Positions 1,775-24,852 of a stretch of 25,324 nt of DNA are shown piece after piece. Within the stretch, counting starts at the first letter, position 1. Each line of letters starts with the position of its first letter. This DNA comes from Thermoanaerobaculia bacterium (GTDB taxonomy: Bacteria; Acidobacteriota; Thermoanaerobaculia; UBA2201), in NCBI GenBank assembly GCA_037478515.1, contig JBBFMJ010000001.1, forward strand, positions 1 through 25,324, written 5' to 3'. The notes under the pieces are model-generated. The model saw only the letters and a list, made by a program, of their open reading frames with translations, was not told the DNA's origin and did no database searches. The translations under genes and the position numbers were made by a program.

Positions 1775-1782
1775 GGGGAGAT

Positions 1783-4930: not shown

Positions 4931-4931
4931 T

Positions 4932-6136: not shown

Positions 6137-6141
6137 TTTTG

Positions 6142-6150
6142 TGTTATAAT
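6142..6150 (+). promoter_or_regulatory. Extended -10 promoter for the ALDH-nadC unit
   Basis: TG-T-TATAAT at 6142-6150, followed by SD AAGGAGGT at 6163-6170 and ATG 6174. Confidence 0.65.
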
Positions 6151-6173
6151 AAGCAAAATTTTAAGGAGGTAAT

Positions 6174-7700: not shown

Positions 7701-7701
7701 G

Positions 7702-8541: not shown

Positions 8542-8543
8542 GA

Positions 8544-10169: not shown

Positions 10170-10801
10170 TATGTTATTTTAACTTGAAAGGAAGTTATCT
10201 TTTTGTCCTTTTCAAAGAGAGCCGCTTCAGCAATATCTCCCTTTTTCAGTTCTCCAATCCCGGAAGGGGTTCCTGTAAAGATTATATCTCCCTTTTTTAA
10301 GGGGATAAATTGACTTATAAATTTAGTTATTTCTCTGGGTTTTAAAATCATTTCTTTAAAAGAGCCCTCCTGCCTTAAAACTCCATTTACAAATAATTTG
10401 ATCTTTAGATCCTTTTCATTTTTTATTTCATAAAAGTTTGAGATGGGTCCAGAGGAGTCAAACCCTTTTGCCAGAAACCAGGGTTTCCCCTTTTCTTTCA
10501 GTTCCTTTTGCAGATCCCTTAGAGTAAGATCCAGCCCAACCCCGTATCCAATTTCCTCTCCCGTAAAGAGCAGGGTTATTTCTACCTCATGGTGCAGGAG
10601 TTTTGCAAAATCAGGTTTTGGAATCCTTTCCATTTTTCCTTCAGCCAGCACCAGTGCCGATAAGGGTTTTATAAAAAGGGCAGGGGAGTCCTTTTCCTTC
10701 CCCATTTCTTTAATATGTTCCCTGTAATTGCTTGTGAGGCAAAATATTCTATTGGGTCTTATTTTAATTTCTTCCTTTTCTTTTATAAATTTTATAAACA
10801 T
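10169..10801 (-). CDS. Fumarylacetoacetate hydrolase family protein (YcgM/FAHD1-like)
   Basis: SNYREH, FIKP, HHEVE, GLDLTLRDLQ, WFLAKGFD, GDIIFTGTPSG. Confidence 0.92.
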   Translation of the reverse strand: MFIKFIKEKEEIKIRPNRIFCLTSNYREHIKEMGKEKDSPALFIKPLSALVLAEGKMERIPKPDFAKLLHHEVEITLLFTGEEIGYGVGLDLTLRDLQKELKEKGKPWFLAKGFDSSGPISNFYEIKNEKDLKIKLFVNGVLRQEGSFKEMILKPREITKFISQFIPLKKGDIIFTGTPSGIGELKKGDIAEAALFEKDKKITSFQVKIT

Positions 10802-11970
10802 AAGGATAGCCCTCTTTCAAGGTCTTCAATTAAATCATTTACATCCTCGCATCCCACGGATAATCTCACAAGCCCATTGGATATCCCTGCCTCTTCTCTC
10901 TGCTTATCTGAAAGACCAGAATGGGTCATTGAAGCAGGGTGCTGGATGAGGGATTCTATGCCTCCCAAGGAGACAGCCAGGGCAGGGACTCTTAAATTAT
11001 TCATAAGTTTAACTCCTGCCTCATATCCACCCTTTAAAATAAAAGATATCATAGCCCCAGGACCCTTCATCTGTTTTTTTGCCAGTGCCCTTTGGGGAAA
11101 GGATTTTAAACTTGGATAAAATACTTTTTCTACTGCCCGCTGTTTTTCCAAAAAGGAAGCAATCTTTTTGGCATTTTCCTGGGCTTTTAAAACTCTTAAA
11201 GGTAGGGTCTTTACACCTCGGAGGATAAGCCATGCCTGATGGGGATCCATTGTTCCACCTAAATTAAGCAAAACCTTCCTGACCCTTTCTCCCAGATCTT
11301 TGTCTTTAAAAATTAATACTCCCCCTAAAGCATCGGAATGACCATTTATATATTTTGTTAAGGAATGCAAGACAATGTCTGCCCCAAAATCTATGGGATT
11401 TTGAAGAATAGGGCTTGAAAAAGTATTATCCACAGCAAGGTAAGCCCCATTTTTATGGGCTATCTCTGCACATTTTTCAATATCTGTCATTTTAAGGGTG
11501 GGATTTGCTGGAGTTTCAATATATATCAGTTTAGTATTCTTTTTTACCGCTTTTTCTACCAGTTTTAAATTTGAAGTATCTATGAAGGAAGATTCAACAC
11601 CAAAGCGTGAAAATTCCTTTTCCATAATGACCCTTGAAGGGGCATAGAGGCAATCAGTTCCAATTATATGATCTCCCTTGCTCAAAAGGGAGAAATATAA
11701 AGTTGAGACAGCAGCCATACCTGTGGCTGTTGCCAGACCCACTTCACCCTTTTCCAACTTTGAGAGTGTTTTTTCCAACTGTTCCACAGTGGGATTTTTT
11801 AATCGGGTATAAATATATCCCTTTCCCGTTAAAAATCTTCTGGACCCTTCTTCAGCAGAAGGGAATTTAAAAATAGAAGTTTGATAAATTGGGGTTATTA
11901 CAGCCCCGGATTTTTCATCTCCCTTTCCATCAGAATGGACGCAAATTGTTTCAAAACCTTCAAAATCCAT
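10792..11970 (-). CDS. Cys/Met metabolism PLP-dependent lyase (methionine gamma-lyase / cystathionine gamma-lyase-like)
   Basis: PIYQTS.F, YTRLKNPT, TGMAAV, YIETPANPTL, VDNTF, HSLTKYINGHSD (PLP Lys), AVSLGGIESLIQHPASMTH, RLSVGCED. LYAPS replaces the LYGCT of classical MGL, so the substrate is uncertain. Confidence 0.88.
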   Translation of the reverse strand: MDFEGFETICVHSDGKGDEKSGAVITPIYQTSIFKFPSAEEGSRRFLTGKGYIYTRLKNPTVEQLEKTLSKLEKGEVGLATATGMAAVSTLYFSLLSKGDHIIGTDCLYAPSRVIMEKEFSRFGVESSFIDTSNLKLVEKAVKKNTKLIYIETPANPTLKMTDIEKCAEIAHKNGAYLAVDNTFSSPILQNPIDFGADIVLHSLTKYINGHSDALGGVLIFKDKDLGERVRKVLLNLGGTMDPHQAWLILRGVKTLPLRVLKAQENAKKIASFLEKQRAVEKVFYPSLKSFPQRALAKKQMKGPGAMISFILKGGYEAGVKLMNNLRVPALAVSLGGIESLIQHPASMTHSGLSDKQREEAGISNGLVRLSVGCEDVNDLIEDLERGLSLCL

Positions 11971-11981
11971 ACTTCCCCCTT

Positions 11982-13235
11982 TTATTTTGTCTGTGATACT
12001 TTGTTATAAATAAAAGCCAGAAACTCTTCCGGTGTAAAAATCTTACAATCTCCAAAATCCTGAACCCTTTTACTCCTCATAAGGTAAAGGGTTCTGTGGC
12101 AGATGTATTCAAAGTTGTATCTAAAATTTTGTCCCTTTAAATCTTCATACATTTTTTGAAGGGTTGTAAGTTGCCTGTCTAGTATGAAATTTGGCTCTTC
12201 GGTTTCATATTTTGCAGGTATTTCCTTTTTCTTTGTCTTTTCAGTTTTTAGTCCAAGATATATGTAAGATAACTTATTTATTTCTTCAGATATTTTATCA
12301 GGGGTTCTTCTCTCTTTTTGATATATTATTGCAGGTATTCCCAAACTATTTGCCCTGTTTATCTCTTCGGACTCCACGATCCATCCCAGATTTGTAGAAT
12401 TAAATCTGGAAGATACATTCCTGGCAAGGTTTACTACAAAGGGTTGAACTGCTTTTTCATAGGAATTTTTAATTCCATTAAACATATTGAGCACATAAAA
12501 TACCTGAAAATATTCTAAAATATTTTGAATTATTTCAATAATTGGATGGTCTCCCAAGGCATGTTTTAAATCAATAAGGAAAGCATCTAAATTTTGAATG
12601 GATGTATCATAGGTGTCCTCCACGGAATCAATTAGAGAATTTATAAGTTTTGAAAGGGAAGCCCCTCCTTTTATTAGATTATAAAGAGGAGATGAGGGGT
12701 GGAAAATTATCCTGAGTTTTCTGAAAAGAATTGCTTTAACAATGTCTGAGGCAGCCATAGTGGCAGCGGGTAAATGGGGTGTAAAGATTAAAATCCCTGA
12801 ATTAGAAAAGGGAAGAAAATCAATTACATTTGGGTCAAGCCCTGCCTTTAAATCCAAGACGATGTATTTTGCATCCAAATTGTTAATGGCATCTATGAGT
12901 TTTTTCTTGTTTTTTGTGGTGAGATTGGATATCTCATCAATGAAATGGGCAGGTCCAGGTATGAAAGAAAATTCCTTAAACCTTCCTTCTGGGTCCCATT
13001 TTGAAGGTATTCTGTTTTGACATTCCTCCAGAAGATTGTTTTTTTTGAAAAAATGGTATAAGTCCTTTTCTATCTGAACATCCAGAACATTTCTTATGGA
13101 AGAAGTACCCGTATCCAGGTCAATTAAAATAGTTCTACCATACTGACTTAAAGTCAAGGCATAATTTATGGCAAAAGTTGTTTTGCCAACTCCCCCCTTC
13201 CCTGATGAAACAGAAATAATTCTCTTATTTTTCAT
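11982..13235 (-). CDS. MinD/FlhG/ParA-family P-loop ATPase with an internal insertion and a C-terminal extension
   Basis: Deviant Walker A SGKGGVGKTT, LIDLDTG, VLDLKAG (switch II-like), VLNMF, GWI..SEEI..A..LGIP; 417 aa, longer than typical MinD/FlhG. Confidence 0.8.
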   Translation of the reverse strand: MKNKRIISVSSGKGGVGKTTFAINYALTLSQYGRTILIDLDTGTSSIRNVLDVQIEKDLYHFFKKNNLLEECQNRIPSKWDPEGRFKEFSFIPGPAHFIDEISNLTTKNKKKLIDAINNLDAKYIVLDLKAGLDPNVIDFLPFSNSGILIFTPHLPAATMAASDIVKAILFRKLRIIFHPSSPLYNLIKGGASLSKLINSLIDSVEDTYDTSIQNLDAFLIDLKHALGDHPIIEIIQNILEYFQVFYVLNMFNGIKNSYEKAVQPFVVNLARNVSSRFNSTNLGWIVESEEINRANSLGIPAIIYQKERRTPDKISEEINKLSYIYLGLKTEKTKKKEIPAKYETEEPNFILDRQLTTLQKMYEDLKGQNFRYNFEYICHRTLYLMRSKRVQDFGDCKIFTPEEFLAFIYNKVSQTK

Positions 13236-13572
13236 TTTTAATTCTTATAAATTTAACACATTTTTTTTATAAAAAGCAAATGGATTTTCTGGAGAATTTA
13301 AAATAGAAATGATTGAAGAATTATGATATTTAAATTTTCTATTAATAAAGCACAAAGTAAATTAAAAAAAATTTTGAATTTAAAAATTTAATAAGCAAAT
13401 GAGAAGACGAAAAAACTTGTAATTTTTTAGTTCAATTTTAAATTTTCATTTATACCTAAAATTGATGAAAAAATTTATTTTTTTTCTCTCGAAAAATTTT
13501 AATATTTTACTTTTTGAGCATATTACAATAAAGGAATAAAATCAATTATTTCTTGCCTTCTTCTAAATTGCT

Positions 13573-13616
13573 TTGTGAAAAAAAGCACTTGACAAAGAAT
13601 TTTTTTCATATAAAAT
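13573..13616 (+). promoter_or_regulatory. Promoter of the redox operon (TTGACA-16-TAAAAT) with an adjoining Rex/CRP-spaced GTG-N8-CAC site
   Basis: TTGACA 13589-13594, TAAAAT 13611-13616; TTGTGAA-AAAA-AGCACTT at 13573-13590 overlaps the start of the -35 box. Confidence 0.6.
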
Positions 13617-13625
13617 ATTTTGGAT

Positions 13626-14801
13626 ATGAAAAGCGTAATTTATCCCAACCTATCCCAGTTAGTAAAAAAGTATGGTAAGTTTGATGGTCGTCTCTGTTAT
13701 AACTGTGGAACCTGCACAGTTTCCTGTCCTATGGCAGACGAGACCACTTCTTTTCCAAGAAGGCCTATTCAAATGGTCCATGTGGGGGAGAAAGATAAAT
13801 TAATATCTATGGTTGAGCCATGGATCTGTCACTGGTGTGGGGACTGCTCAGCCAATTGTCCCCAGAAAGCAGAACCAGGGGAATCGATGAATACCATCAG
13901 AAAATACCTCTCCTCTGTTTATGACTGGACTGGGATTTCCTCAATTTTTAATAAATACTGGATTTTTAAAATTGGGCTTTATCTTTTTTCCATTGCTTTA
14001 ATCTTTGGATTGATTGCCTATTATCACATAAAAGAAGTGGGTATCTCTTTTTCTGACCTATTAAAAATGACCCCTTCGGAGATGAGTGATTCAAATTTAG
14101 GCCATGTCTTTGGAACAACTAAAATAATGTTTTATTTTACCTATGCTTTCTTCCTTTTGCCTTTAATTATACTCATAACCAACGGGATGAGGATGTGGTA
14201 TTTCACAATGAAAAGGAATAGTGCCCTTAAAATTCCCTTCTCCCTTTACCTTTCAGAACTTAAAAATTTCTTAATCCTTGGACTTACCCAGAAAAAATTC
14301 AAAGAATGCAAGGAAAAGAGTATGTGGACAAGGCACGTAACCCTTTTTGCTGGCTTTCTTTTGATTTCAATAATTGTATTTTTCTTTTTGAAATTTTTCC
14401 AGACCGATGCCATTTATCCCATCTACCATCCTCAAAGATGGCTTGGCTACATTGCTACAATCCTGATGCTTTATGGAAGTACTGCTATGATATTAGGGAG
14501 AATAACAAAGAAGGAAGAGATACACAAAAAGAGCGATTTTTCTGATTGGTCCCTTCCAATTTTATGTTTTCTTGTGGCTTTAAGCGGAATACTTATCCAT
14601 ATCTTTAGATATGTAAAAATGGAAAAGGCATCCCACTATATGTTTCTTGCTCATATTTTGATTTTAGCCCCGTTGATGCTCAAAGAACTTCCCTTTGGAA
14701 AGCTTGCCCACCTCCTCTACCATCCTCTTGGTCTTTACTTTAAAGGGGTAAAAGACAGAGCCATTAAGATGGAAGAAGAAAAAGAAGCAAAGGTTGCCTA
14801 A
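13626..14801 (+). CDS. qmoC: QmoC-like protein: HdrC-like 2x[4Fe-4S] domain plus NarI-like transmembrane (heme b) domain
   Basis: CYNCGTCTVSCP and CHWCGDCSANCP; several TM helices; YHPQRWLGY and PFGKLAH, which I recognise from QmoC; His pair in the last helix (LAH...KLAH). Start at ATG 13626 or TTG 13620. Confidence 0.8.
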   Translation: MKSVIYPNLSQLVKKYGKFDGRLCYNCGTCTVSCPMADETTSFPRRPIQMVHVGEKDKLISMVEPWICHWCGDCSANCPQKAEPGESMNTIRKYLSSVYDWTGISSIFNKYWIFKIGLYLFSIALIFGLIAYYHIKEVGISFSDLLKMTPSEMSDSNLGHVFGTTKIMFYFTYAFFLLPLIILITNGMRMWYFTMKRNSALKIPFSLYLSELKNFLILGLTQKKFKECKEKSMWTRHVTLFAGFLLISIIVFFFLKFFQTDAIYPIYHPQRWLGYIATILMLYGSTAMILGRITKKEEIHKKSDFSDWSLPILCFLVALSGILIHIFRYVKMEKASHYMFLAHILILAPLMLKELPFGKLAHLLYHPLGLYFKGVKDRAIKMEEEKEAKVA

Positions 14802-14828
14802 AATTTGAAATAAGGAGGGATATTAAAT

Positions 14829-15698
14829 ATGATTGAACAAAAGGTTGGAGCAGCAATGATAGTGGGTGGAGGGATTGGGGGAATGCAGGCAGCCCTAGAC
14901 CTGGCTGAATCAGGAATAAAGGTCTATATTGTGGAAAAGGACTCAGCCATTGGTGGAGTTATGGCTATGCTGGATAAAACCTTCCCCACCAATGACTGTG
15001 CTATGTGTACTATGGCTCCCCGTCTTGTTTCAATTGGAAGGCATAAGGATATTGAAGTTATTTCCATGGCATCCATTGAAAGGGTTGAAGGGGAAAAGGG
15101 AAATTTTAAAATAAGGATTAAAAAGAATCCAAGATATGTGGATGAAGAAAAGTGCACTGGCTGTGGCAGTTGTATTGAAAACTGCCCTGTCTATTTTAAA
15201 GTCCAGCCCTTAAAAATAGAAAGGACAAAACTGGATCCCAAATTTGAAAAGGTAAAGGAAATTGTAGCCAAACATAAGAACAGAAAAGGATTCCTGATGC
15301 CCATACTTCAGGAAATAAATGCCACCTATTATTACCTTCCAGAAAATGCTTTAAGATATGTGGCTGAAGAGACAGGCACACCTTTAATAAATATTATGAG
15401 AATAGCAACCTTTTACAGTGCCTTCAGCATAACCCCTAGGGGAAAGAATTTAATAAATGTATGCACCGGAACTGCTTGCTATGTGAAGGGAGCAGATCGT
15501 CTGATGGAAAAGTTTCAGGAAGTTTTGGATATTCCGGAAGGGGGAACCACAAAAGATATGCTCTTTACTTTAAAATCAGTTCGCTGCATTGGTTGTTGTG
15601 GTCTGGCTCCTGCAATAATGGTCAATGATACTGTCTATGGAAAACTTCTCCCCAAGGATGTGCCTGACATAATTAAAAAATACAAGGAGGCTTCATAA
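14829..15698 (+). CDS. Fusion: N-terminal HdrA fragment (FAD Rossmann start plus half a ferredoxin) and NuoE/HndA-like [2Fe-2S] domain
   Basis: Residues 1-121: IVGGGIGGMQAALDLA, EK...IGG.MA.LDKTFPTNDCAMC, PRYVDEEKCTGCGSCIENCPV. Residues ~136-289: LMPILQEIN..Y.YLP, ATFYSAFS..PRGK..INVCTGTACYVKG, VRCIGCCGLAP. SD AGGAGG upstream. Confidence 0.9.
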   Translation: MIEQKVGAAMIVGGGIGGMQAALDLAESGIKVYIVEKDSAIGGVMAMLDKTFPTNDCAMCTMAPRLVSIGRHKDIEVISMASIERVEGEKGNFKIRIKKNPRYVDEEKCTGCGSCIENCPVYFKVQPLKIERTKLDPKFEKVKEIVAKHKNRKGFLMPILQEINATYYYLPENALRYVAEETGTPLINIMRIATFYSAFSITPRGKNLINVCTGTACYVKGADRLMEKFQEVLDIPEGGTTKDMLFTLKSVRCIGCCGLAPAIMVNDTVYGKLLPKDVPDIIKKYKEAS

Positions 15699-15699
15699 T

Positions 15700-16083
15700 A
15701 TGCCAAAGCTAACCCTTGAAGATTTAAAGAAAAAAAGAGAAGAGGCAAGGTCTAAACTTTATTTAAGAGATGGAGAATTCAGAGGGAAAGTAATTGTCCA
15801 TATGGGAACCTGTGGAATTGCAGCAGGGGCAAGGGAAATAGTGGAACAATTTCTTGAAGAGGTGGAAAAAAACAATGCCAGAGACATTCAAATAACCACT
15901 TCCGGGTGTGCTGGTTTGTGCTCAAAGGAACCTATGGCAACGGTAGAGATAAAAGGTGCAGCTCCAGTAAAATACATAACCCTTAGCAGAGATAAAGTCA
16001 AAAAGATTTTTAAAGAACATATATTGGAAGGAAAAATTGTAGCTGAATATGCCCTTGGTGTGGGCTCTGAAAAAGGAGGTTAG
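15700..16083 (+). CDS. Thioredoxin-like ferredoxin, HndB/HydD-like
   Basis: VHMGTCGIAAGAR and TSGCAGLCSKEP; lies between the NuoE-like and NuoF-like genes, as hndB does in hndABCD. Confidence 0.85.
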   Translation: MPKLTLEDLKKKREEARSKLYLRDGEFRGKVIVHMGTCGIAAGAREIVEQFLEEVEKNNARDIQITTSGCAGLCSKEPMATVEIKGAAPVKYITLSRDKVKKIFKEHILEGKIVAEYALGVGSEKGG

Positions 16084-16086
16084 AAT

Positions 16087-17979
16087 ATGGCTACAAGAAG
16101 AATAGAACTTATGCTTTGTACTGGGACAGGTTGTGTGGCGGGGGGTGCCTTTAGAATAAAGGATGCCCTGGAGAAGGAAATAAAAAAACACAACCTTCAA
16201 AATGAAGTTTCTGTGGTTATAACTGGTTGTAATGGCTTTTGTGGGCAGGGTCCTATAATGGTTGTAAAACCAGACGATATTTTTTATGGTTTTTTAAATG
16301 AGCAGGAAATAGGGTATCTGGTGGAGGAACACCTTTTAAAAGGCAGGCCTGTAAAAAAATTTATGTTTACGCCCCCAGAAAAGAAGGAGCCCATTAAACT
16401 TTTGAGCGAAATTCCCTTCTTCCAGAAACAGATGCTTATTGTTTTAAGAAATAAAGGAATCATTGATCCGGAAAACATTGAAGAGTATATTGCCAGAGAT
16501 GGTTATGCTGCCCTGGAAAAGGTTCTAACCTCAATGAAGCCAGAAGAAGTCATAGAAGAGATAAAAAAATCTGGATTGAGGGGAAGGGGTGGTGCTGGAT
16601 TTCCCACGGGCCAGAAATGGGAAGTTTGTTTCAAACAGAAGGTTAAACCAAAATATTTAATCTGTAATTGTGATGAGGGAGATCCCGGCGCTTATATGGA
16701 CAGGTCTGTCTTTGAAACAGATCCCCATTCTGTAATTGAAGGTATGATAATTGCTTCCTACGCCTGTGATATAGATCAGGCATTTATTTATATAAGAACA
16801 GAATATCCCCTGGCAGTGCAGAGAGCAGCCAAGGCAATTCAGCAGGCAAAGGAATATGGACTTTTAGGGAAAAATATTTTGGGAACAAATTTTAGTCTGG
16901 ACATTGAAATAAGGGAAGGTTCAGGTGCCTTTGTATGTGGAGAAACCACTTCCCTGCAGCATTCCATTGAAGGTAAAAACCCAGAACCCAGGCAGAGACC
17001 TCCCAGGACTTCTGAAAAGGGCTTATGGGATCAACCCACAGTGGTAAATAATGTGGAAACCCTGGCAAATGTACCTGTTATCATTTTAAGGGGTGGTGAC
17101 TGGTATGCCAGCATTGGCACTGAAAAAAGCAAAGGGACTAAAATATTTTCTCTTGTAGGAAAGGTAAATAACACGGGCCTTGTGGAAGTTCCTATGGGTA
17201 TAACTTTGAGGGAAATGATTTATGATATAGGTGGTGGAATTCCAAAGGGGAAAAAATTTAAAGCAGTTCAAACGGGTGGTCCTTCTGGTGGCTGTATCCC
17301 AGAAAAATATCTGGATACACCTGTGGATTTTGAAACTTTAACTTCCCTGGGTTCAATGATGGGTTCTGGTGGTATGATTGTAATGGACGAAGATACTTGC
17401 ATGGTGGATGTAGCAAAATATTTTATACAATTTACCAATGATGAGTCCTGTGGAAAATGCACCATCTGCAGGGAAGGTTCAGGGGCTTTACTGGAGGTTT
17501 TAACAAGGATTACAGAAGGAAAAGGCAAGGAAAGAGATATTGAATATTTAGAAGAACTCTGTGCAGCCATAATTGATGGATCCCTCTGTGGTCTGGGAAA
17601 CAGTTTGCCCTATCCAGTTTTAACTACTCTTAAATATTTCAAAGAAGAATATGAAGCCCATATTAAAGAGAAAGCGTGCCCTGCCAGATCCTGTAAAAGT
17701 TTAATTAAATACTGGATTGATCCAGACAGGTGCGTGGGCTGTCTATTATGTATGAAAAACTGTCCCACCAATGCCATATCAGGGAAAACAAAATTTATCC
17801 ATACTATAAATTATGAATTATGTACAAAATGTGGAAACTGTTTTGATGTCTGCCCTGAAAAAGTAGGGGCAGTTAAAAAACTAACAGGTACTGAACCTGA
17901 AAAAGTGGTCTATTTAAAGGAGCCAGTTGCAGTGGGGGATTGGAAAAAACAAAAACAAGAGGAGGGAAAAAATGATTAA
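16087..17979 (+). CDS. NuoF/HndC/HydB-like NAD(P)H-binding flavoprotein, long form with extra FeS domains
   Basis: N-terminal Trx-like CTGTGC...GCNGFC; SGLRGRGGAGFPTG; CNCDEGDPGAYMDR; GAFVCGETTSL; NNVETLAN; GGPSGG; SCGKCTICREG/SLCGLG; EDTC and H...K.CPARSC site; C-terminal CVGCLLCMKNCP and CTKCGNCFDVCP. Confidence 0.93.
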   Translation: MATRRIELMLCTGTGCVAGGAFRIKDALEKEIKKHNLQNEVSVVITGCNGFCGQGPIMVVKPDDIFYGFLNEQEIGYLVEEHLLKGRPVKKFMFTPPEKKEPIKLLSEIPFFQKQMLIVLRNKGIIDPENIEEYIARDGYAALEKVLTSMKPEEVIEEIKKSGLRGRGGAGFPTGQKWEVCFKQKVKPKYLICNCDEGDPGAYMDRSVFETDPHSVIEGMIIASYACDIDQAFIYIRTEYPLAVQRAAKAIQQAKEYGLLGKNILGTNFSLDIEIREGSGAFVCGETTSLQHSIEGKNPEPRQRPPRTSEKGLWDQPTVVNNVETLANVPVIILRGGDWYASIGTEKSKGTKIFSLVGKVNNTGLVEVPMGITLREMIYDIGGGIPKGKKFKAVQTGGPSGGCIPEKYLDTPVDFETLTSLGSMMGSGGMIVMDEDTCMVDVAKYFIQFTNDESCGKCTICREGSGALLEVLTRITEGKGKERDIEYLEELCAAIIDGSLCGLGNSLPYPVLTTLKYFKEEYEAHIKEKACPARSCKSLIKYWIDPDRCVGCLLCMKNCPTNAISGKTKFIHTINYELCTKCGNCFDVCPEKVGAVKKLTGTEPEKVVYLKEPVAVGDWKKQKQEEGKND

Positions 17980-20900
17980 GATTATTGTGGATGGAAAAGA
18001 AGTAGAAATTGAAGGTGGTCAAAAATTAATTAAAGCAGTGGAAGCAGCAGGGGTAAAGGTTCCAACCCTTTGCTATCATAAGGCATTGAGCCCCTATGGT
18101 GCTTGCCGTTTGTGCGTGGTGGAGGTGGGGGCAAAGGGAAGGAGTAAATCCGTCCAGGCATCCTGTACTTACCCTGCCAGCGATGGGCTGGAAGTTTTGA
18201 CTAATACAGAGAGGGTAAGAAGGGTAAGAAAGATTGCTTTAGAACTTCTGCTTGCTAGGTGCCCCTCTTCTGAAACCATCCAGCTTCTGGCTGCTGAATA
18301 TGGGGTCTTTGAGCCCAGGATTGAAAAGAAAAATGAGGACTGTATAAATTGTGGGCTCTGCATTAGGATGTGTGAAGAGAGGATGGGAAGAAAGGTCTTA
18401 GGTTTTACAGGAAGGGGTCCAAGAAAAAAATTAGAGCCACCCTTTTCGGCAAAAAATCCTGCCTGCTGGGCCTGTGGTGCCTGTAATTTTATTTGCCCAG
18501 TGGGAAAGAAAGTTACAGATCTTACTACAGATCTGGAATTCAAACCCATTGAAGATAGATTCAATAGGGGTTTGAGCAGCAGGGCAGTTGCCCATATCCT
18601 CTATCCCCAGGCAGTACCAGCCAAGGCAGTTCTGGACCCAGAAAATTGTATTAGGTTAAATTATGATGCCTGTGGTATCTGCGCTGAAGTATGCGAACCC
18701 AAGGCAATAAATTTTGAAGACAAGGGTAAGGAGCTGGAAATAAATGTGGGTTCCATAATCCTTGCCCCTGGATTTGATCCTTACAAACCAGAGGAAAAGG
18801 AAGATTTGGGTTATAAAAAATTTCCAAATGTGGTTACCTCCATTGAATTTGAAAGAATCCTCTCTGCTTCAGGTCCCTACTGCGGAGAGGTAAAGAGGCC
18901 CTCTGATGGAAAACATCCAGAAAAGATTGCCTTTATCCAATGCGTTGGATCAAGAGAAAAGGAAAGAAACTGGTGCTCTTCTGTTTGCTGTATGTATGCC
19001 ACAAAGGAAGCAATTATGGCAAAGGAACATGCAGGGGAGAGTTTAAAATGTGATATCTATTTTATGGATGTGAGGGCATATTCAAAGGGTTTTGAACAAT
19101 ATTATGATAGTGCCAAGAAGCTGGGAATAAATTATATAAGGTGCAGGGTTCCAAAACTGGAGGAAAACCCAGAAAATAAAAATATCATAGTAACCTATCT
19201 TGGTGAGGATGATAGAAAATTAAAAGCAGAATATGATATGGTTATACTTTCCATAGGCCTCTGCCCTCCTTCAGATGCAAAGAAAATAGCTGAAAAATTT
19301 GGCATTGACTTGAACGAATTTGGTTTTGCTTCCTCTTCCACCTTCAAGCCAGTGGAGACAAAAAGGGAAGGGATTTACATTGCAGGTCCCTTCACGGAGC
19401 CCAAGGATATTCCAGAAACAGTAATGCAGGCAACTGCTTCTGCTTCTAAGGCACTTTCAGTGCTGGCTGATGTAAAGGGTCAGCTTATAAAGCCCATGGT
19501 ATTTCCTGAGGAAGTGGATGTTACAGGGCAGGAGCCCAGAATTGGGGTATTTGTATGCCATTGCGGAACAAATATTGCAGGAGTTGTAAATGTTCCGGAA
19601 GTGGTGGAATATGCAAAAACCCTTCCCAATGTGGTCTTTGCCACTAATACAATTTATACCTGCTCCAATGATACCCAGGAACTTATAAAACAAAAGATAA
19701 AGGAATACAATTTGAATAGAATTATTGTCTCTGCTTGCACTCCAAGAACCCATGAACCCCTTTTCAGAAATACTGTAAAGGAAGCGGGTTTAAATCCCTA
19801 TCTCTTTGAAATGGCAAATATAAGGGATCAAAACTCTTGGGTGCATATGCAGTTCCCCGATGCAGCAACTAAAAAGGCAAAGGACCTCGTCAGAATGGCA
19901 GTGGCAAAGGCAAGATTGCTAGAACCTTTACAGAACAGCTACATAGATATAATAAAAAATGCCCTGGTAATTGGGGGTGGTATTGCAGGTATGAAGGCAT
20001 CCATGGAGCTGGCAAATCAAGGATACAAAGTTTACCTTTTAGAAAAGACAGGGGAACTGGGTGGAAATTTAAGGAATATCCATTATTTATTAAACGGAGA
20101 AAATCCAAAAGAGGAGCTGGAAAAGATTATAAAAGAGGTAAAGGAAAATAAAAATATTGAAATTTACTTTAATGCAAAAATAGAAGAGGTGGAGGGCTCC
20201 GTGGGAAGGTATAAGACAAAGATAAAATCCAATGGAAATGAGTATGTTTTTGAACATGGAGTTGTAATAATTGCAATGGGTGGAAAGGAATATGAGCCCA
20301 AAGAATATATGTATGGAGAAGATGGAAGGGTCCTCACCCAGAGGCAATTGGAAGAAAAGATTGCAAAAAAAGAAATTAAACTTCCTGAAACTGTGGTAAT
20401 GATCCAGTGCGTGGGTTCCAGAGAAGGGGAAAGGCCATCCTGTTCAAGGATATGCTGCGGTATTGCCATAAAGAATGCATTAAAAATCAAGGAAATTTCA
20501 CCAAAAACCAATGTTTTCATACTTTACAGAGATGTAAGGGCTTATGGATTTAAAGAAAAGTATTACACTCTGGCAAGGGATAAAGGGGTAACCTTTATAA
20601 GATGGGATATTGAAGATGGAAAACCAGCCGTTTATAAAAATAATGGAAAAATATATGTTGATGTAAAGGATAAGATTTTGAATATGGAGCATACAATTCC
20701 AGCAGACCTTGTAGTTTTATCCACTGGGGTTATGCCTAACGAAGATCATAAAGAAGTTGCCCAGCATTTTAAGGTTCCGGTTACTGCAGAAGGATACTTT
20801 CTGGAAGCCCATATGAAACTCCGGCCTGTGGACTTTGCCACAGATGGTGTTTTCCTTGCAGGTCTTGCTCATTTCCCCAAGACCATTGATGAAAGCATAA

Positions 20901-21220
20901 TCCAGGCACAGGCATCGGCAGCAAGGGCAGCAACTATTCTTTCAAAGGACAAATTAGAGCTGGAAGCCACAATTTCAAAAGTCATTGATGAAAACTGCGA
21001 TGGTTGTGCTTACTGTGTGGATACCTGTCCTTACAAAGCCATTACCCTTCTGGAATATGTTTTTCAGGGCAGCATAAAGAAGACCGTGGAAGCCAATGAA
21101 AGCTTATGCAAGGGCTGTGGGACCTGTATGGCAACCTGCCCAAAGAAAGGTATTCTTGTAAAGGGCTTTACCTTGGAGCAGCTGCAGGCACAGGTCTTTG
21201 CAGCACTTGAACAATCTTAA
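17972..21220 (+). CDS. Fusion: NuoG/HndD-like N-terminal FeS region, remainder of HdrA copy 1, and a complete second HdrA/QmoB-like module
   Basis: Start reassigned from 17927 to ATG 17972 (SD AGGAGG). Res 1-178: PTLCY, GACRLCVVE, ASC, CINCGLCIRMC, CWACGACNFICP. Res ~192 onward: RFNRGLSSRA...YPQAVP, ENC...CGICAEVC, VGSIILAPGF, TSIEFERILSASGP, FIQCVGSR, CSSVCCMYATKEA, AGP...PKDIPETV. Then IGVFVCHCG.NI, ACTPRTHEPLF, NIRDQ, ALVIGGGIAG, MIQCVGSR, CSRICC, EAH.KLRPV, CDGCAYCVDTCP, CKGCGTCMATCP. Confidence 0.92.
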   Translation: MIKIIVDGKEVEIEGGQKLIKAVEAAGVKVPTLCYHKALSPYGACRLCVVEVGAKGRSKSVQASCTYPASDGLEVLTNTERVRRVRKIALELLLARCPSSETIQLLAAEYGVFEPRIEKKNEDCINCGLCIRMCEERMGRKVLGFTGRGPRKKLEPPFSAKNPACWACGACNFICPVGKKVTDLTTDLEFKPIEDRFNRGLSSRAVAHILYPQAVPAKAVLDPENCIRLNYDACGICAEVCEPKAINFEDKGKELEINVGSIILAPGFDPYKPEEKEDLGYKKFPNVVTSIEFERILSASGPYCGEVKRPSDGKHPEKIAFIQCVGSREKERNWCSSVCCMYATKEAIMAKEHAGESLKCDIYFMDVRAYSKGFEQYYDSAKKLGINYIRCRVPKLEENPENKNIIVTYLGEDDRKLKAEYDMVILSIGLCPPSDAKKIAEKFGIDLNEFGFASSSTFKPVETKREGIYIAGPFTEPKDIPETVMQATASASKALSVLADVKGQLIKPMVFPEEVDVTGQEPRIGVFVCHCGTNIAGVVNVPEVVEYAKTLPNVVFATNTIYTCSNDTQELIKQKIKEYNLNRIIVSACTPRTHEPLFRNTVKEAGLNPYLFEMANIRDQNSWVHMQFPDAATKKAKDLVRMAVAKARLLEPLQNSYIDIIKNALVIGGGIAGMKASMELANQGYKVYLLEKTGELGGNLRNIHYLLNGENPKEELEKIIKEVKENKNIEIYFNAKIEEVEGSVGRYKTKIKSNGNEYVFEHGVVIIAMGGKEYEPKEYMYGEDGRVLTQRQLEEKIAKKEIKLPETVVMIQCVGSREGERPSCSRICCGIAIKNALKIKEISPKTNVFILYRDVRAYGFKEKYYTLARDKGVTFIRWDIEDGKPAVYKNNGKIYVDVKDKILNMEHTIPADLVVLSTGVMPNEDHKEVAQHFKVPVTAEGYFLEAHMKLRPVDFATDGVFLAGLAHFPKTIDESIIQAQASAARAATILSKDKLELEATISKVIDENCDGCAYCVDTCPYKAITLLEYVFQGSIKKTVEANESLCKGCGTCMATCPKKGILVKGFTLEQLQAQVFAALEQS

Positions 21221-21236
21221 ATTAAAGAGGTGAAAT

Positions 21237-21653
21237 ATGTCTGAGAACTTTGAACCCTTCATAATTGCTTTTTGTTGTAACTGGTGTTCCTATGCAGCAG
21301 CAGACCTGGCAGGGGTCTCCAGGTTTCAGTATCCCCCTAATATGAGGCTTATTAGAGTTATGTGTTCTGGTATGGTGCATCCAAACCTTATAATTGATGC
21401 CTTGACAAGGGGTGCTGACGGCGTAATTGTTTGTGGATGCCACCCAGGGGACTGCCATTATCTTTCAGGAAATCTGGTTGCAAAGAAAAGGGAAGAGGGT
21501 ATCTATTTAATGCTGGATGACTTGGGGATTGAAAGGGACAGGTTCCGCTTGGAATGGATTTCTGCTGCAGAAGGAATTAAATTTTCTCAGGTTATGAAGG
21601 AATTCACCGAGCAAATAAGAAAACTGGGTCCCAGCCCTTATAGAACATTTTAA
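21237..21653 (+). CDS. mvhD: Methyl-viologen-reducing hydrogenase delta subunit ([2Fe-2S], MvhD/FlpD family)
   Basis: AFCCNWCSYAAAD, RLIRVMCSG, GADGV..CGCHPGDCHY, RFRLEWISAAEG. Confidence 0.95.
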   Translation: MSENFEPFIIAFCCNWCSYAAADLAGVSRFQYPPNMRLIRVMCSGMVHPNLIIDALTRGADGVIVCGCHPGDCHYLSGNLVAKKREEGIYLMLDDLGIERDRFRLEWISAAEGIKFSQVMKEFTEQIRKLGPSPYRTF

Positions 21654-21662
21654 GGAGTGCTT

Positions 21663-21854
21663 ATGAACCTCTCCAAAATATTTGAAGGAAAAAAATTTAT
21701 GTGGGATGGGGGGGAGTATAAAGATGAAAAGGAAGCCACAGAAGTGATGAATAAATACAAAAATGATGGTTTTGAGACCTATCTTTATAAGGAAAATGAT
21801 AAATATTATGTTTTTACAAGAAAAGTGGTATCAGAAATTAAGGTTGAAAGCTGA
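21663..21854 (+). CDS. Small hypothetical protein (63 aa) inside the Hdr-Mvh operon
   Basis: SD AAGGAG at 21652-21657, 5 nt before ATG 21663 (alternative GTG 21657). KKFMWDG...Y...GFE.....YYVFTRKVV; fills the gap between mvhD and mvhG; no Cys. Confidence 0.8.
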   Translation: MNLSKIFEGKKFMWDGGEYKDEKEATEVMNKYKNDGFETYLYKENDKYYVFTRKVVSEIKVES

Positions 21855-21859
21855 TGCCC

Positions 21860-21888
21860 TTGAAAATGTTTTAAAAAAAGCTTAATAT
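21860..21888 (+). promoter_or_regulatory. Candidate internal promoter upstream of mvhG
   Basis: TTGAAA (21860-21865), 17 nt, TAATAT (21883-21888); SD AAGGAGGT before ATG 21934. The region is AT-rich, so a chance match is possible. Confidence 0.45.
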
Positions 21889-21891
21889 AAA

Positions 21892-21911
21892 TTGAGAGTT
21901 GGGACTCTCAA
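21892..21911. repeat. Perfect 8-bp hairpin in the mvhG leader
   Basis: TTGAGAGT-TGGG-ACTCTCAA; no plus-strand U tract follows. Confidence 0.65.
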
Positions 21912-21933
21912 AATAAATAAATAAGGAGGTTTT

Positions 21934-22860
21934 ATGGCAGTAAAAGTTGCTAATGAATGTTTTGCCATCTGTCAGGGATGCGAAATTACCATCCTGGACA
22001 TCGGAGAAACCCTTCTGGAACTCCTTCCCCAGCTTGAATTTGTACATATGCCTGTTCTGATGGATCACAAACTCTTTGGTCAGACCGGTGAAAAAGATAA
22101 GATGGAGATACCTGAAGCAGATGTGGGAATCATCTCAGGAGGAGTGAGAAATGAGGAAAACAAAGAAGTTCTAAAGGAAATGAGAGCCAAATGCAAGACC
22201 CTTATTGCCCTTGGTTCCTGTGCCTGTTTTGGTGGGATTCCAGCCCTGGCAAATCAGTTTCAACTGGCTGAACTTTATGAAAAGGTTTACAGGCAATCCA
22301 AAAGTACTGATCCCGCCGAAACTCCTTCAAAAGAGGTACCCCCTTTGACAGATAGAGTTTATGCTTTGGATGAGATTGTAAAAGTAGATGTATATATCCC
22401 TGGCTGTCCAACTCAACCTGAAATTATTCTGGAAGCTTTAACTGCCCTTCTTCAGGGCAAGCCCTTCTCCCTGCCAGAAAGATCTGTGTGCGATGATTGT
22501 CCTACCCAGAGGCAGAAGAAAGCAGATATCTCCTTGAGAAGACCCCTGGAAAATGTAACAGATATTACAAAAAAAGTGGAAGAATCCAGATGTTTTATGG
22601 AACTGGGATATTTATGCCTGGGTCCTGTGACCAAGTCAGGTTGTGGTGGTCATGAGAAAGTTCCAAGGTGTATAAAAGGATATATGCCTTGCAGAGGTTG
22701 TTTTGGTCCTATCAGAAAGGGTGCAAATCCACTGGTGGAAATGATTGGTGCCTTATCATCCATTGGGCTTGATCCAAACCTGATCCCAGACAGGGCAGCA
22801 ACAATTCAAAGGTATATTGGTGCCCACAACAGGTTAAGACCACTACCAAAAAGACCATAA
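21934..22860 (+). CDS. mvhG: [NiFe]-hydrogenase small subunit, group 3c (MvhG-like)
   Basis: CQGCEITILD, ALGSCACFGGIP, YIPGCP, VCDDCP, RCF....LCLGPVT..GC, C....MPCRGCFGP; no Tat signal. Confidence 0.92.
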   Translation: MAVKVANECFAICQGCEITILDIGETLLELLPQLEFVHMPVLMDHKLFGQTGEKDKMEIPEADVGIISGGVRNEENKEVLKEMRAKCKTLIALGSCACFGGIPALANQFQLAELYEKVYRQSKSTDPAETPSKEVPPLTDRVYALDEIVKVDVYIPGCPTQPEIILEALTALLQGKPFSLPERSVCDDCPTQRQKKADISLRRPLENVTDITKKVEESRCFMELGYLCLGPVTKSGCGGHEKVPRCIKGYMPCRGCFGPIRKGANPLVEMIGALSSIGLDPNLIPDRAATIQRYIGAHNRLRPLPKRP

Positions 22861-22875
22861 TTTAAGGAGGAAAAA

Positions 22876-24318
22876 ATGAAAAAAATAGTTATACAACCCG
22901 TATCAAGGATTGAAGGACATGCAAAGGTAACAATCCAGCTGGACGATGCTGGAAATGTCCAGGACACCTGGGTAAATGTAATAGAACTAAGGGGCTTTGA
23001 AAAGTTCTGTATTGGAAAGCCCGTAGAGGAACTTCCCAGGATTGTGACTTCCATCTGTGGTGTCTGCCCCTGGTCTCACCATCTTGCCTCATCCAAGGCA
23101 TGCGATGCTGTCTTTGGTGTGCAGCCCCCACCTGCAGGTAGAAAATTAAGGGAACTCTGCAATTCCATTGCCTATACTGAAGAACACACTCTCCATTTTT
23201 ATTTTCTGGCAGGCGCAGATTTTGTAATGGGTCCTGATGAGGATTATTCTATAAGAAATGTAATTGGTATTGCCCAGAAATATCCAGACATAGGTAAGAA
23301 AGTTGTAAGGTGCAGGCATCTTGCAGCAGTTATGCTGGACATTGTTTCAGGAAAAGCAATCCACCCTGTCACTTCTGTTCCAGGGGGAGTAAGCAAACCT
23401 TTAAGGCAAGAAGAAGTTGAAAAATTAAAACCTATGGCAGAGGAAATGCTGGAATTTGCAAAATTTTCCATTGATTTTGCCAAGAAAAATATCTTCCCCA
23501 AATTTCTGGATGCAGTAAAAACCATTGGGGTAATTGAAACAGGTTTTCTGGGAACCGTAAAGGATGATGGTGCTTTGGACCTCTATGATGGGAAACTAAG
23601 GATGATGACCCCCGATGGGAAGTATGAGGACTTTACTTATGAACAGTATACTGATTTTATTGCTGAGCATATTGAGCCCTGGTCCTATTTGAAGTTTCCC
23701 TATATGAAGAAAGCAGGTGGTTTTTCTATGGACCTGGCAAATCCCAAAGGAATTTACAGAACCAATACCCTTGCCAGAATAAATGTATGTGATTATATTC
23801 CAACCCCACTTGCCCAAGCAGAACTGGAAGAATTCAGAAAGAATTTTGGAAGACCCTGTCAGCTTACACTCCTTTATAACTGGGCACGCCTTATAGAACT
23901 TTTATACAATGCAGAAATGGTTGTAAAACTTTTAAATGACCCAGAAATTACTTCCACTGATACCAGGGTTCCAGTAAAGCCCAGAGCAGCAAGGGGTATT
24001 GGCTGTGTGGAAGCCCCCAGAGGAACCCTCATCCACGATTATGAAACCGATGCCAATGGGATTGTTACAAATGTTAATTTAATTGTAGGAACTACCCACA
24101 ACAATGCTCCCATAAATATGTCTGTTAAGAAAACTGCCAAAGAACTCATAAAAGATGGAAAATATGATCAGGGAATTTTAAACCGCTTAGAGATGGCAAT
24201 TAGAGCCTATGACCCCTGCCTCTCCTGTGCTACACATAAGCTGGATGGTACCCTTCCTGTTAAAGTTGAAATAATTGACAAAAACTTCAAAAAAATAGAT
24301 ACCTTGGTAAATTATTAA
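22876..24318 (+). CDS. mvhA: [NiFe]-hydrogenase large subunit, group 3c (MvhA-like)
   Basis: PVSRIEGHAK, ELRGFEKF, L1 SICGVCPWSHH, EAPRGTLIHDY, TTHN, L2 RAYDPCLSCATH followed by a 26-aa cleavable C-terminal extension. Cys, not Sec. Confidence 0.94.
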   Translation: MKKIVIQPVSRIEGHAKVTIQLDDAGNVQDTWVNVIELRGFEKFCIGKPVEELPRIVTSICGVCPWSHHLASSKACDAVFGVQPPPAGRKLRELCNSIAYTEEHTLHFYFLAGADFVMGPDEDYSIRNVIGIAQKYPDIGKKVVRCRHLAAVMLDIVSGKAIHPVTSVPGGVSKPLRQEEVEKLKPMAEEMLEFAKFSIDFAKKNIFPKFLDAVKTIGVIETGFLGTVKDDGALDLYDGKLRMMTPDGKYEDFTYEQYTDFIAEHIEPWSYLKFPYMKKAGGFSMDLANPKGIYRTNTLARINVCDYIPTPLAQAELEEFRKNFGRPCQLTLLYNWARLIELLYNAEMVVKLLNDPEITSTDTRVPVKPRAARGIGCVEAPRGTLIHDYETDANGIVTNVNLIVGTTHNNAPINMSVKKTAKELIKDGKYDQGILNRLEMAIRAYDPCLSCATHKLDGTLPVKVEIIDKNFKKIDTLVNY

Positions 24319-24324
24319 AAATTT

Positions 24325-24360
24325 AAGGCACGGCTTAAAAAATAAGCCGTGCCTTTTCTT
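24325..24360 (+). terminator. Intrinsic terminator-like hairpin after mvhA
   Basis: AAGGCACGGCTTA-AAAAA-TAAGCCGTGCCTT: perfect 13-bp stem with a 5-nt loop; its end runs into TTTTCTT. Confidence 0.85.
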
Positions 24361-24852
24361 ATGGAAAATTACCCATCTTACTGTCTTAAGAAAAATTTAG
24401 TTTTAGGTTGTGGAAATATCTTTTTTGGCGATGATGGTTTTGGTCCTGAATTTATAAAGTACCTGGAAGAAAGTGGATTGATACCAGAGGATACAATTGC
24501 CATAAATGCAGGTTTAAGCATAAGAGAAATTTTATTTAACATTGTTTTAAGTGATAAAAAGCCAGAAAGGATAGTTATAATAGATGCTGTAGATTTAGGG
24601 GAAGAGCCAGGAGAGATTTTTGAGGTAGACCTGGATGAGATTCCCAAAATTAAGATAGATGATTTTTCTATGCACCAGATGCCCACTTCCAATCTTTTAA
24701 AGGAATTAAAAGAGAAAGGAAATGTGGAGGTAAGGGTTTTATCAATTCAGGTAGAAAATATCCCCGAAGAGATAAGCCCTGGAATATCAGAAAAACTAAA
24801 AAATTCTTATGAAAAAATGTATCAAAAATTAGTAAAAATACTGGAGGAATAA
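24361..24852 (+). CDS. Hydrogenase maturation endopeptidase (HyaD/HycI/FrhD family)
   Basis: LVLGCGNIFFGDDGFG, IVIIDAVD.G..PG, SMHQ. ATG 24361 preferred because GTG 24349 lies inside the terminator stem. Confidence 0.92.
   Translation: MENYPSYCLKKNLVLGCGNIFFGDDGFGPEFIKYLEESGLIPEDTIAINAGLSIREILFNIVLSDKKPERIVIIDAVDLGEEPGEIFEVDLDEIPKIKIDDFSMHQMPTSNLLKELKEKGNVEVRVLSIQVENIPEEISPGISEKLKNSYEKMYQKLVKILEE

Follow-up and report, generated by a model that had tools for sequence, protein, structure and literature searches.

A Bfu-type gene cassette splits the HdrA gene within a predicted hydrogenase- and quinone-linked redox operon of a Thermoanaerobaculia bacterium

A 25,324-nucleotide stretch of DNA from a Thermoanaerobaculia bacterium (assembly GCA_037478515.1, contig JBBFMJ010000001.1, positions 1–25,324, forward strand; hereafter the window) encodes an HdrA protein whose first module (module 1) is divided between two polypeptides, each fused to a subunit of a Bfu/Hnd-type module. 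The first of these is a 289-residue protein in which residues 8–121 match HdrA residues 145–258 of PDB entry 5ODC (E = 1.5e-37), and residues 135–287 match the HydC/NuoE chain 8a6t_C (E = 5e-48). Homology to HdrA stops at V121 (nucleotide 15191), after the first of the two Cys motifs in the inserted ferredoxin domain, CTGCGSCIENCP (nucleotides 15153–15188). It restarts at P192 of a 1082-residue protein (nucleotide 18545), where the segment PIEDRFNRGL pairs with 5ODC from residue 259 onward and is followed by YPQAVP and then by the second Cys motif, C226-x7-C-x2-C-x3-C241 (nucleotides 18647–18694). Alignment to 5ODC and to unsplit homologues showed zero HdrA residues missing or doubled at the break. 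In the unsplit protein of locus L073, from an Actinomycetota metagenome-assembled genome (MAG), the CPV at the end of the first Cys motif directly joins the PIEDRF-equivalent stretch without interruption, and the HdrA N-fragment of the window is 58–64% identical to the N termini of unsplit and HdrL homologues. A preliminary description of this DNA had proposed a split of HdrA with exactly these two breakpoints and a colinear restart, and had located the break inside the inserted ferredoxin domain, with one of its two Cys motifs on each piece; both proposals are borne out by the alignments, to 5ODC and the L073 protein in the case of the breakpoints. An HndB-like gene (15700–16083) and a NuoF/HydB gene (16087–17979) lie between the HdrA pieces. 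The split genes, their parts and the genes between them are as follows.

14829..15698, plus strand: HdrA N-fragment fused to NuoE/HydC, 289 residues
14829..15191, plus strand: HdrA N-fragment, residues 1–121 (matches 5ODC 145–258 and 8rvu 153–267)
15192..15230, plus strand: linker between HdrA fragment and NuoE domain, residues 122–134
15231..15698, plus strand: NuoE/HydC (BfuC) domain, thioredoxin-like [2Fe-2S] (PF01257, E = 1e-47; 8a6t_C, 7t2r_C)
15700..16083, plus strand: HndB-like small thioredoxin-like [2Fe-2S] protein (weak match to PF01257; weak match to an NCBIfam 2Fe-2S ferredoxin family)
16087..17979, plus strand: NuoF/HydB (BfuB), end-to-end match to 7t2r_B, 7q4v_B and 8a6t_B
17972..21220, plus strand: NuoG/HydA N-domain fused to HdrA, large protein of 1082 residues
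17972..18508, plus strand: short NuoG/HydA N-domain (BfuA-like), residues 1–179 (9mqx_A over residues 2–179, E = 2e-38)
18509..18544, plus strand: linker between NuoG N-domain and HdrA, residues 180–191
18545..19489, plus strand: remainder of HdrA module 1, residues 192–506 (5ODC 259–510; sHdrA 6tjr_A up to residue 497)
19490..21220, plus strand: HdrA module 2, residues 507–1082 (520–754 to 5ODC 2–237; 912–1074 to 5ODC 487–645)

As a check on chimerism, both junctions were sought, and confirmed, on contigs of independent metagenomes. The window is environmental sequence, present only in sediment and hot-spring metagenomes, a circumstance that favors reading the junctions as assembly chimeras or as frameshift artifacts of metagenome-derived sequence; we assign this reading virtually no probability. 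The stretch was present in two metagenomes of different studies, one a sediment sample and the other a hot-spring sample. In run X1, a 3576-nucleotide contig covers positions 14500–16242 with one mismatch and another contig covers 17963–19000, while in run X2, from a different study, a contig covers 18155–19000, and in run X5 a relative of ∼92% identity crosses both junctions. Identical gene boundaries recur in hundreds of independent assemblies, including the closed MAG chromosomes CP070656, CP070638, and CP070825, and an assembly artifact was ruled out by these assemblies together with the bridging contigs. Short apparent joints were also encountered in the metagenome check, with sides of 23 to 38 nucleotides and from other, deeper contigs; these were read as conserved motifs of other organisms.

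The split is widespread. At least 439 species-representative genomes encode a relative of the 289-residue fusion, with carriers in Bacteroidota, Fidelibacterota, Acidobacteriota, Ignavibacteriota, Gemmatimonadota, Lentisphaerota, Thermodesulfobacteriota, and Aminicenantes, and further carriers in KSB1, Latescibacterota, Actinomycetota, and MAGs labeled Bacillota. Each of the best 120 database matches to the 289-residue protein (64–98% identity) combines FAD_oxidored/Fer4 with 2Fe-2S_thioredx domains. That homologues would share the breakpoints of the window, as the preliminary description had suggested checking, was found in all loci examined (55/55): every locus with at least 10 kb of downstream sequence contained the NuoG-N-fused large partner, aligned from residue 1 to ∼1080 at ∼60% identity. 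A QmoC-like homologue was located directly upstream in 61 of 69 related loci.

Judged by its domains and motifs, the HdrA encoded in the window is a tandem, BamE-like ("type II") pseudo-dimer in which the split copy holds the inserted ferredoxin. The N-fragment carries an FAD (flavin adenine dinucleotide)-binding beta-alpha-beta element (G13–G18), the invariant DKTFPTNDCAMC stretch, and, from the inserted ferredoxin, the first Cys motif (C109–C119), and its module 1 Cys pair, C57/C60, corresponds to Cys194/197 of 5ODC. The remainder of module 1, on the large protein, comprises the second half of the inserted ferredoxin (C226, C234, C237, and C241), a TrxR-like domain, and a CSSVCC cluster motif, with E294 and K345 as equivalents of E356 and K409. 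Module 2 is composed of an N-terminal cluster domain (CHCG), an FAD domain (G668–G673), and a C-terminal 2x[4Fe-4S] ferredoxin domain, and has neither the Cys pair nor an inserted ferredoxin. The sole GxGxxG of the large protein, at residues 668 to 673, thus belongs to module 2, and the only GxGxxG of the split copy lies in the first gene (G13–G18, 289-residue protein only), in agreement with the earlier proposal that this motif and the rest of the module 1 FAD domain are encoded in separate genes. The hallmark FAD domain of HdrA, i.e., GxGxxG plus the Lys/Glu pair, is therefore present but spread across two polypeptides, and the inserted ferredoxin, N-domain, C-terminal ferredoxin, and TrxR cluster are each present once, distributed over modules 1 and 2. 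The roles of the K409 and E356 residues near the flavin, and the "type II" class of HdrA, have been described (PMC12054007). Complementary domains are likewise known from fused or tandem HdrA of ANME (anaerobic methanotrophic) archaea, in which Cys197 from one of the two copies is a ligand to the N-domain cluster in its partner (PMC9012536), and BamE has been described as "a fused HdrA dimer" with a domain permutation and an N-terminal TrxR domain bearing the bifurcating FAD (bioRxiv 10.64898/2026.04.10.717634). No entry for BamE or for class II benzoyl-CoA reductase (BCRII) appeared among the PDB search matches.

By virtue of its motifs, the 289-residue protein would contribute to three cofactor sites, namely the FAD, the N-domain cluster, and the dicluster ferredoxin. 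In a dicluster ferredoxin, each cluster is bound by three Cys of one motif and one Cys of the other. We infer that the split HdrA is put together in trans, with the FAD-binding beta-alpha-beta element, the Cys194/197-type pair, and one dicluster Cys motif coming from the small piece and the rest from the large one. Invariance of cofactor ligands on both pieces across phyla is what assembly in trans predicts. The 63 homologues of the small protein that were compared all keep the GxGxxG, the DKTFPTNDCxMC stretch, and C109/C112/C115/C119-P120 without change; in the large protein, C226/C234/C237/C241, F293-E294-R295, and C335...C339-C340-M-Y-x-T-K345 are invariant in 43 homologues. The linkers are variable (residues 122–140 of the small protein among 77 homologues, and residues 180–197 of the large protein among 58). 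To our knowledge, there is no precedent for a naturally split dicluster ferredoxin.

Single-chain AlphaFold2 models of the 289-residue and 1082-residue proteins had confident flavin-domain cores, and all Fe-S domains, whether split or intact, showed low predicted local distance difference test (pLDDT) values. Within the 289-residue protein, the linker block scored ∼52, and the segment LDKTFPTNDC (residues 46–56, nucleotides 14964–14996) was the most conserved yet the least confident (pLDDT <50). Low values at this segment would be expected of a region ordered by FAD, a cluster, or a partner chain, and are not proof of such ordering. A different explanation is that the HdrA fragment on NuoE is vestigial, with module 1 an inactive scaffold and the complex working through module 2 alone. 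The least confident modeling of the fragment at its conserved motif is consistent with this idea, as is BamE, which has one catalytic and one structural TrxR domain. However, the GxGxxG, DKTFPTNDCxMC, and the four motif Cys stay invariant in 63 to 77 homologues of more than 10 phyla while the adjacent linker drifts; the inserted ferredoxin, the Cys197-type ligand, E294, and K345 all sit in module 1; and module 2 is without any inserted ferredoxin domain. A vestigial fragment is accordingly very improbable.

The genes inserted into HdrA are predicted to encode a complete, bifurcating Bfu/Hnd-type NADH/ferredoxin module (BfuC, HndB-like, BfuB, and BfuA). BfuB found its best PDB match in 7t2r_B (794 bits, residues 1–596 to 1–594) and contains an N-terminal Trx-like [2Fe-2S] domain, an FMN/NAD(H) site (flavin mononucleotide and nicotinamide adenine dinucleotide), and a C-terminal 2x[4Fe-4S] domain; the protein was assigned to the bifurcating type because its alignment with 7t2r_B, 7q4v_B, and 8a6t_B is full length and includes both terminal domains, which are the hallmark of bifurcating HydB. 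The preliminary description had spoken of an inserted diaphorase cassette, of which the NADH module stands and the plain diaphorase does not, given that the full-length BfuB alignment points to a full HydBC/Bfu-type bifurcating module. Top Foldseek matches of the NuoE/HydC domain were HydC subunits of bifurcating complexes. The NuoG-like part matches Fer2_4 (residues 1–79) and Fer4_21/Fer4_Nqo3 (115–178), consistent with a [2Fe-2S] cluster plus a dicluster domain (C124–C134 and C165–C175). No motif for a His-ligated cluster was found in this short NuoG/HydA N-domain, which in this respect resembles the short BfuA of "type 2" Bfu. The Bfu signature residues F182, A202, and M204 (Schut 2022) were also considered: the Ala and Met fall in DEGDPGA[FY]M, position 182 does not fall on a Phe by the 7t2r_B count, and no claim is made from them. 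The HndB-like gene is present in most related loci and is not found in the Acidobacteriota loci. Across related loci, the end of NuoF and the beginning of the large gene are separated by between 4 nucleotides and 4.25 kb. In locus L008 (13130–15883), for example, genes with DRTGG, CBS plus HATPase_c, PHP, and HATPase_c domains and a 117-residue open reading frame (ORF) lie inside the cassette, between NuoF and the NuoG-N/HdrA fusion; a putative regulatory block of this type occurs in about half of the related loci and is not found in the window.

The split genes form part of a tightly packed plus-strand operon of ten genes spanning 13620–24852, as delineated by the ORF map and by Pfam and NCBIfam scans. 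The other members are the following.

13620..14801, plus strand: QmoC-like membrane Fe-S subunit (Fer4_8/Fer4_17 at residues 26–83; Nitrate_red_gam at 273–351)
21237..21653, plus strand: MvhD-like [2Fe-2S] adaptor (PF02662, E = 9e-55; NCBIfam VhuD, 132 bits)
21663..21854, plus strand: conserved ORF of 63 residues (no Pfam family)
21934..22860, plus strand: [NiFe]-hydrogenase small subunit, MvhG/VhuG type (PF01058; NCBIfam VhuG, 222 bits)
22876..24318, plus strand: [NiFe]-hydrogenase large subunit, group 3c, MvhA/VhuA type (NCBIfam VhuA, 466 bits)
24349..24852, plus strand: hydrogenase maturation protease (PF01750)

According to Pfam, the QmoC-like subunit joins an HdrC-type 2x[4Fe-4S] domain to a NarI-like membrane domain, and it is proposed as the quinone link on these grounds. 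The large hydrogenase subunit has the L1 motif ICGVCPWSH at residue 60 and the L2 motif AYDPCLSCATH with its DPC at residue 446; the group 3c motifs have been defined as ICGxCxxxH (L1) and AYDPCxxCATH (L2) (PMC6085437). The 63-residue ORF, between mvhD and the hydrogenase small-subunit gene, was detected by tblastn in the same position in many related loci at 40–58% identity. No CCG domain was identified by Pfam in the operon ORFs scanned, the only HdrC-type dicluster domain being the one fused to the membrane domain. No apr gene was present within the operon, and Pfam identified no AOR-type gene in or beside it, the ORFs at 722–6136 and the rest of the genome being outside this search.

We estimate at roughly 70% the probability that the products of the operon form a single multi-subunit redox complex around the tandem HdrA, with assembly in trans and an electron path connecting H2, quinone, and NAD(H)/ferredoxin, a reading drawn from sequence and from analogy to characterized complexes. 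The likely composition is QmoC-like/split-HdrA/Bfu/MvhDGA. In this complex, assembly in trans would anchor the Bfu module to the HdrA arm that bears the inserted ferredoxin, through which low-potential electrons leave in both methanogen Hdr and BCRII; one Cys of the Cys194/197 pair ligates the N-domain cluster in methanogen HdrA. MvhAG would oxidize H2 (−414 mV) as the mid-potential donor. One branch would then run from the TrxR-domain cluster through the HdrC-type clusters of the QmoC-like subunit to menaquinone (about −74 mV), and the other from the N-domain cluster and the split inserted ferredoxin through BfuA and BfuB to NAD+ (−320 mV) and/or ferredoxin (about −500 mV), with the potentials as quoted in PMC9304861; electrons may also flow in the opposite direction along all of it. 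The BCRII homologues of BfuC and BfuA, BamG and BamI, touch each other through the N-terminal helical bundle of BamG, and because of this contact the BfuC N terminus and the C terminus of the short BfuA can both reach one HdrA loop.

Several observations weigh against this scheme. In BCRII, the Bfu module feeds HdrA via the C-terminal ferredoxin domain and an MvhD-like subunit, not via the inserted ferredoxin, and the proposed wiring is therefore without solved precedent. Equivalents of K409 and E356 are kept in both HdrA modules, so that the bifurcating FAD could be either one. The QmoC-like gene scored 185 bits against NCBIfam qmoC, under the equivalog cutoff of 300. In the AlphaFold2 model of the 1082-residue protein, pLDDT is <50 at residues 119–246, and equally low at the intact C-terminal ferredoxin domain. 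Finally, spending low-potential electrons on NAD+ seems inefficient, except where ferredoxin is reduced alongside it or where H2 is very dilute.

The same architecture could also operate with the opposite roles, as an H2-evolving, quinone-assisted NADH/ferredoxin oxidase. Bfu would here confurcate NADH and reduced ferredoxin, electrons would reach the HdrA FAD via the split ferredoxin as mid-potential donor, and the FAD would bifurcate them between a high-potential branch, via QmoC to menaquinone, and a low-potential branch, via MvhD/MvhAG to protons, with H2 evolution. Many carriers belong to Bacteroidales, Ignavibacteriota, Aminicenantes, and Fidelibacterota, which are usually regarded as fermentative and must dispose of NADH and reduced ferredoxin. 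Also consistent with such a direction are the input (confurcating) role of the Bfu module in BCRII and, in locus L055, an HdrL-type paralogue beside the split operon that has QmoC-like and MvhD partners and is without a hydrogenase. A rewiring of this kind has been proposed for type III HdrA, in which GltD in the inserted ferredoxin would block access of ferredoxin (PMC12054007). However, H2 production alongside quinone reduction has no obvious physiological use, and we consider the reversed roles unlikely, though of appreciable weight beside the H2-oxidizing scheme.

The predicted complex shares parts with several known systems. One close counterpart is the class II benzoyl-CoA reductase BamBCDEFGHI of Geobacter metallireducens ("Bam-Bfu"; bioRxiv 10.64898/2026.04.10.717634; Schut 2022, PMC9304861), which likewise has a HydBC/Bfu module (BamGHI), a fused tandem HdrA (BamE), an MvhD-like BamF, permuted complementary HdrA domains, and a short BfuA without a His-ligated cluster. 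In contrast to the window, BamE is one polypeptide, BamGHI are separate proteins docked at the C-terminal ferredoxin/MvhD side, and the partners are the tungsten BamBC reductase and an HdrBC-like BamD in place of a [NiFe] hydrogenase and a QmoC-like anchor. Methanogen MvhADG-HdrABC (5ODC, 8RVU) has in common with the window operon the group 3c [NiFe] hydrogenase, MvhD, and the HdrA domains and cofactor motifs. Its HdrA, however, is a homodimer of one unsplit 650-residue chain, its CCG-domain HdrBC reduces heterodisulfide, and it is without the NAD(H) module and membrane anchor that are both predicted in the window operon. NiFe-HydABCSL of Acetomicrobium mobile (7T2R; PMC8880783) combines a [NiFe] hydrogenase with a HydBC/Bfu core, and residues 139–286 of the BfuC fusion match its BfuC (E = 9e-41), but this enzyme has no HdrA, MvhD, or membrane subunit, and its hydrogenase docks on a long BfuA (Bfu type 3). 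QmoABC of sulfate reducers shares two HdrA-like flavoprotein modules, an MvhD-like domain, and a QmoC with HdrC- and HdrE-type parts, and differs in having no Bfu module and no hydrogenase; the window operon, for its part, is without aprAB and its qmoC score is below cutoff. FlxABCD-HdrABC (Flox/Hdr) also couples NAD(P)H to HdrA, but through an NADH module made up of separate subunits and with an uninterrupted HdrA gene. HdrL, or "type III" HdrA, has its two Cys motifs separated by an NAD(P)H-binding module, and its bacterial forms are tandem with MvhD, some with a QmoC-like neighbor; unlike the window proteins, HdrL is a single polypeptide from an unsplit gene, with one inserted domain (Fer4_20 plus Pyr_redox_2) and no Bfu module. 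Its GltD insert is known to interrupt the inserted ferredoxin domain (PMC9012536, PMC12054007), and HdrL is treated in Strittmatter 2009 and Pereira 2011 as cited in PMC5947623.

Tandem HdrA, GltD/NfnB inserts, and Bam-Bfu are thus already published. We found no published account of an HdrA split by NuoE/F/G (Bfu) genes, a mention in Appel et al. 2021 (BBA 1862:148379) being possible, and the Bfu-split HdrA is new in the sense that no description of it was found. In genome papers, bacterial clusters of group 3c hydrogenase and Hdr are usually labeled MvhADG/HdrABC or "functions yet unknown," and the 289-residue protein is named just "NAD(P)H-dependent oxidoreductase subunit E," and is therefore missed in genome-based inferences of H2 metabolism. 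Caldithrix abyssi and Thermoanaerobaculum aquaticum have been named as carriers of Hdr-linked group 3c clusters (PMC5317091). The operon points to a hydrogenase wired via HdrA to an NADH/ferredoxin bifurcating module and the quinone pool, with no heterodisulfide involved, across many non-methanogens (Bacteroidota, Acidobacteriota, Ignavibacteriota, Fidelibacterota, Gemmatimonadota, Aminicenantes, and others). It would represent a second natural case, built unlike BCRII, of HdrA-type and HydBC-type machines in one complex, and a natural test case for protein assembly, in which two subunits apparently share in forming a Rossmann FAD site and a dicluster ferredoxin.

Other modules interrupt HdrA in the same region. 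HdrL-type proteins, with a Fer4_20 plus Pyr_redox_2 (GltD/NfnB-like) insert in the inter-motif linker, are encoded in at least 573 species genomes. In the HdrL of locus L055, Fer4_20 at residues 155–231 is followed by Pyr_redox_2 at 247–544; no Fer4_20 (PF14691) was found in the HdrA pieces of the window, where the Pyr_redox_2 matches are HdrA's own FAD domains. The preliminary description had placed HdrL inserts in the same ferredoxin region. They do fall in the same inter-motif linker, but not at the same point, the insert beginning ∼27 residues downstream, after PFPQxVP. In two Dehalococcoidales loci, L201 (7113–14125) and L198, another cassette splits HdrA at the same place as in the window; the L201 gene order is HdrB-like CCG protein, N-fragment fused to a polyferredoxin (332 residues), molybdopterin/FdhA-like protein (680 residues), a 1033-residue protein with the HdrA remainder and second module, and MvhD. 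A tentative generalization, to which we give somewhat less than even odds, is that the inter-motif linker of the inserted ferredoxin is a general plug-in socket that has been opened repeatedly, by the Bfu cassette, by GltD in HdrL, and by a polyferredoxin plus Fdh-like gene in L201. In the gene-splitting cases, two polypeptides would together form the dicluster ferredoxin fold and the Rossmann FAD site, and HdrA- and Bfu-type bifurcation sites would be placed in series so that menaquinone-pulled H2 oxidation yields NADH and reduced ferredoxin.

Unsplit tandem HdrA proteins of ∼1000 residues constitute a very large family. In trees of ∼1000 columns, the split proteins formed a clade with good support, separate from the unsplit ones. 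Nested in this clade were the HdrL-type proteins from Acidobacteriota and Gemmatimonadota (L055, L082–L095), next to split copies of the same taxa, and those from Syntrophaceae, Dehalococcoidia, Bacillota, and Asgard archaea fell elsewhere in the trees. On the L055 contig, the HdrL-type gene set (2046–8295) adjoins the split operon (8658–20842), and the HdrL is 81% identical to the split copy; nesting within the split clade could reflect module swapping or gene conversion between such co-resident paralogues. The L073 contig has an unsplit operon (2852–9926) directly upstream of a split one. Its order is HdrC-like protein, HdrA (1014 residues), MvhD, two Fe-S proteins, and an FlxA-like FAD/NAD protein, which is a Flx/Flox-type arrangement, with NAD(P)H linked to the operon via individual Flx-like subunits.

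Free-standing genes for the HdrA N-fragment (139–149 residues), each with a separate NuoE just downstream, were found in L163, L164, L167, L168, L181, and L199, and fusion to NuoE is thus not obligatory. These settings include some Chloroflexota, and in L163 (6001–6917) the pair adjoins dsrAB/dsrC; there the N-fragment ends in a TAA stop and is followed by an AAGGAG Shine-Dalgarno sequence and the GTG start of NuoE in another frame. N-fragments with a stop codon of their own can function only in trans. The N-fragment protein of L164 (7001–7883) occurs on seven contigs and is followed by MvhD, DUF5981, and MTHFR genes (a MetVF-like context), and L185 has a fused N-fragment/NuoE form in the same class as the free-standing forms. 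Most short matches to residues 1–125 were not counted as free-standing, being contig-end truncations or products of frameshift-ridden long-read assemblies (L165 and L166). Elsewhere in L164 (13105–13530), an MvhD-like gene is called as two pieces of 67 and 50 residues, which may reflect an in-frame selenocysteine codon (cf. BamF). In L161/L162 (6001–8688), beside a complex I operon, an N-fragment gene overlaps a short NuoE and is accompanied by a truncated NuoF and no large HdrA gene, an arrangement that looks like a decayed module.

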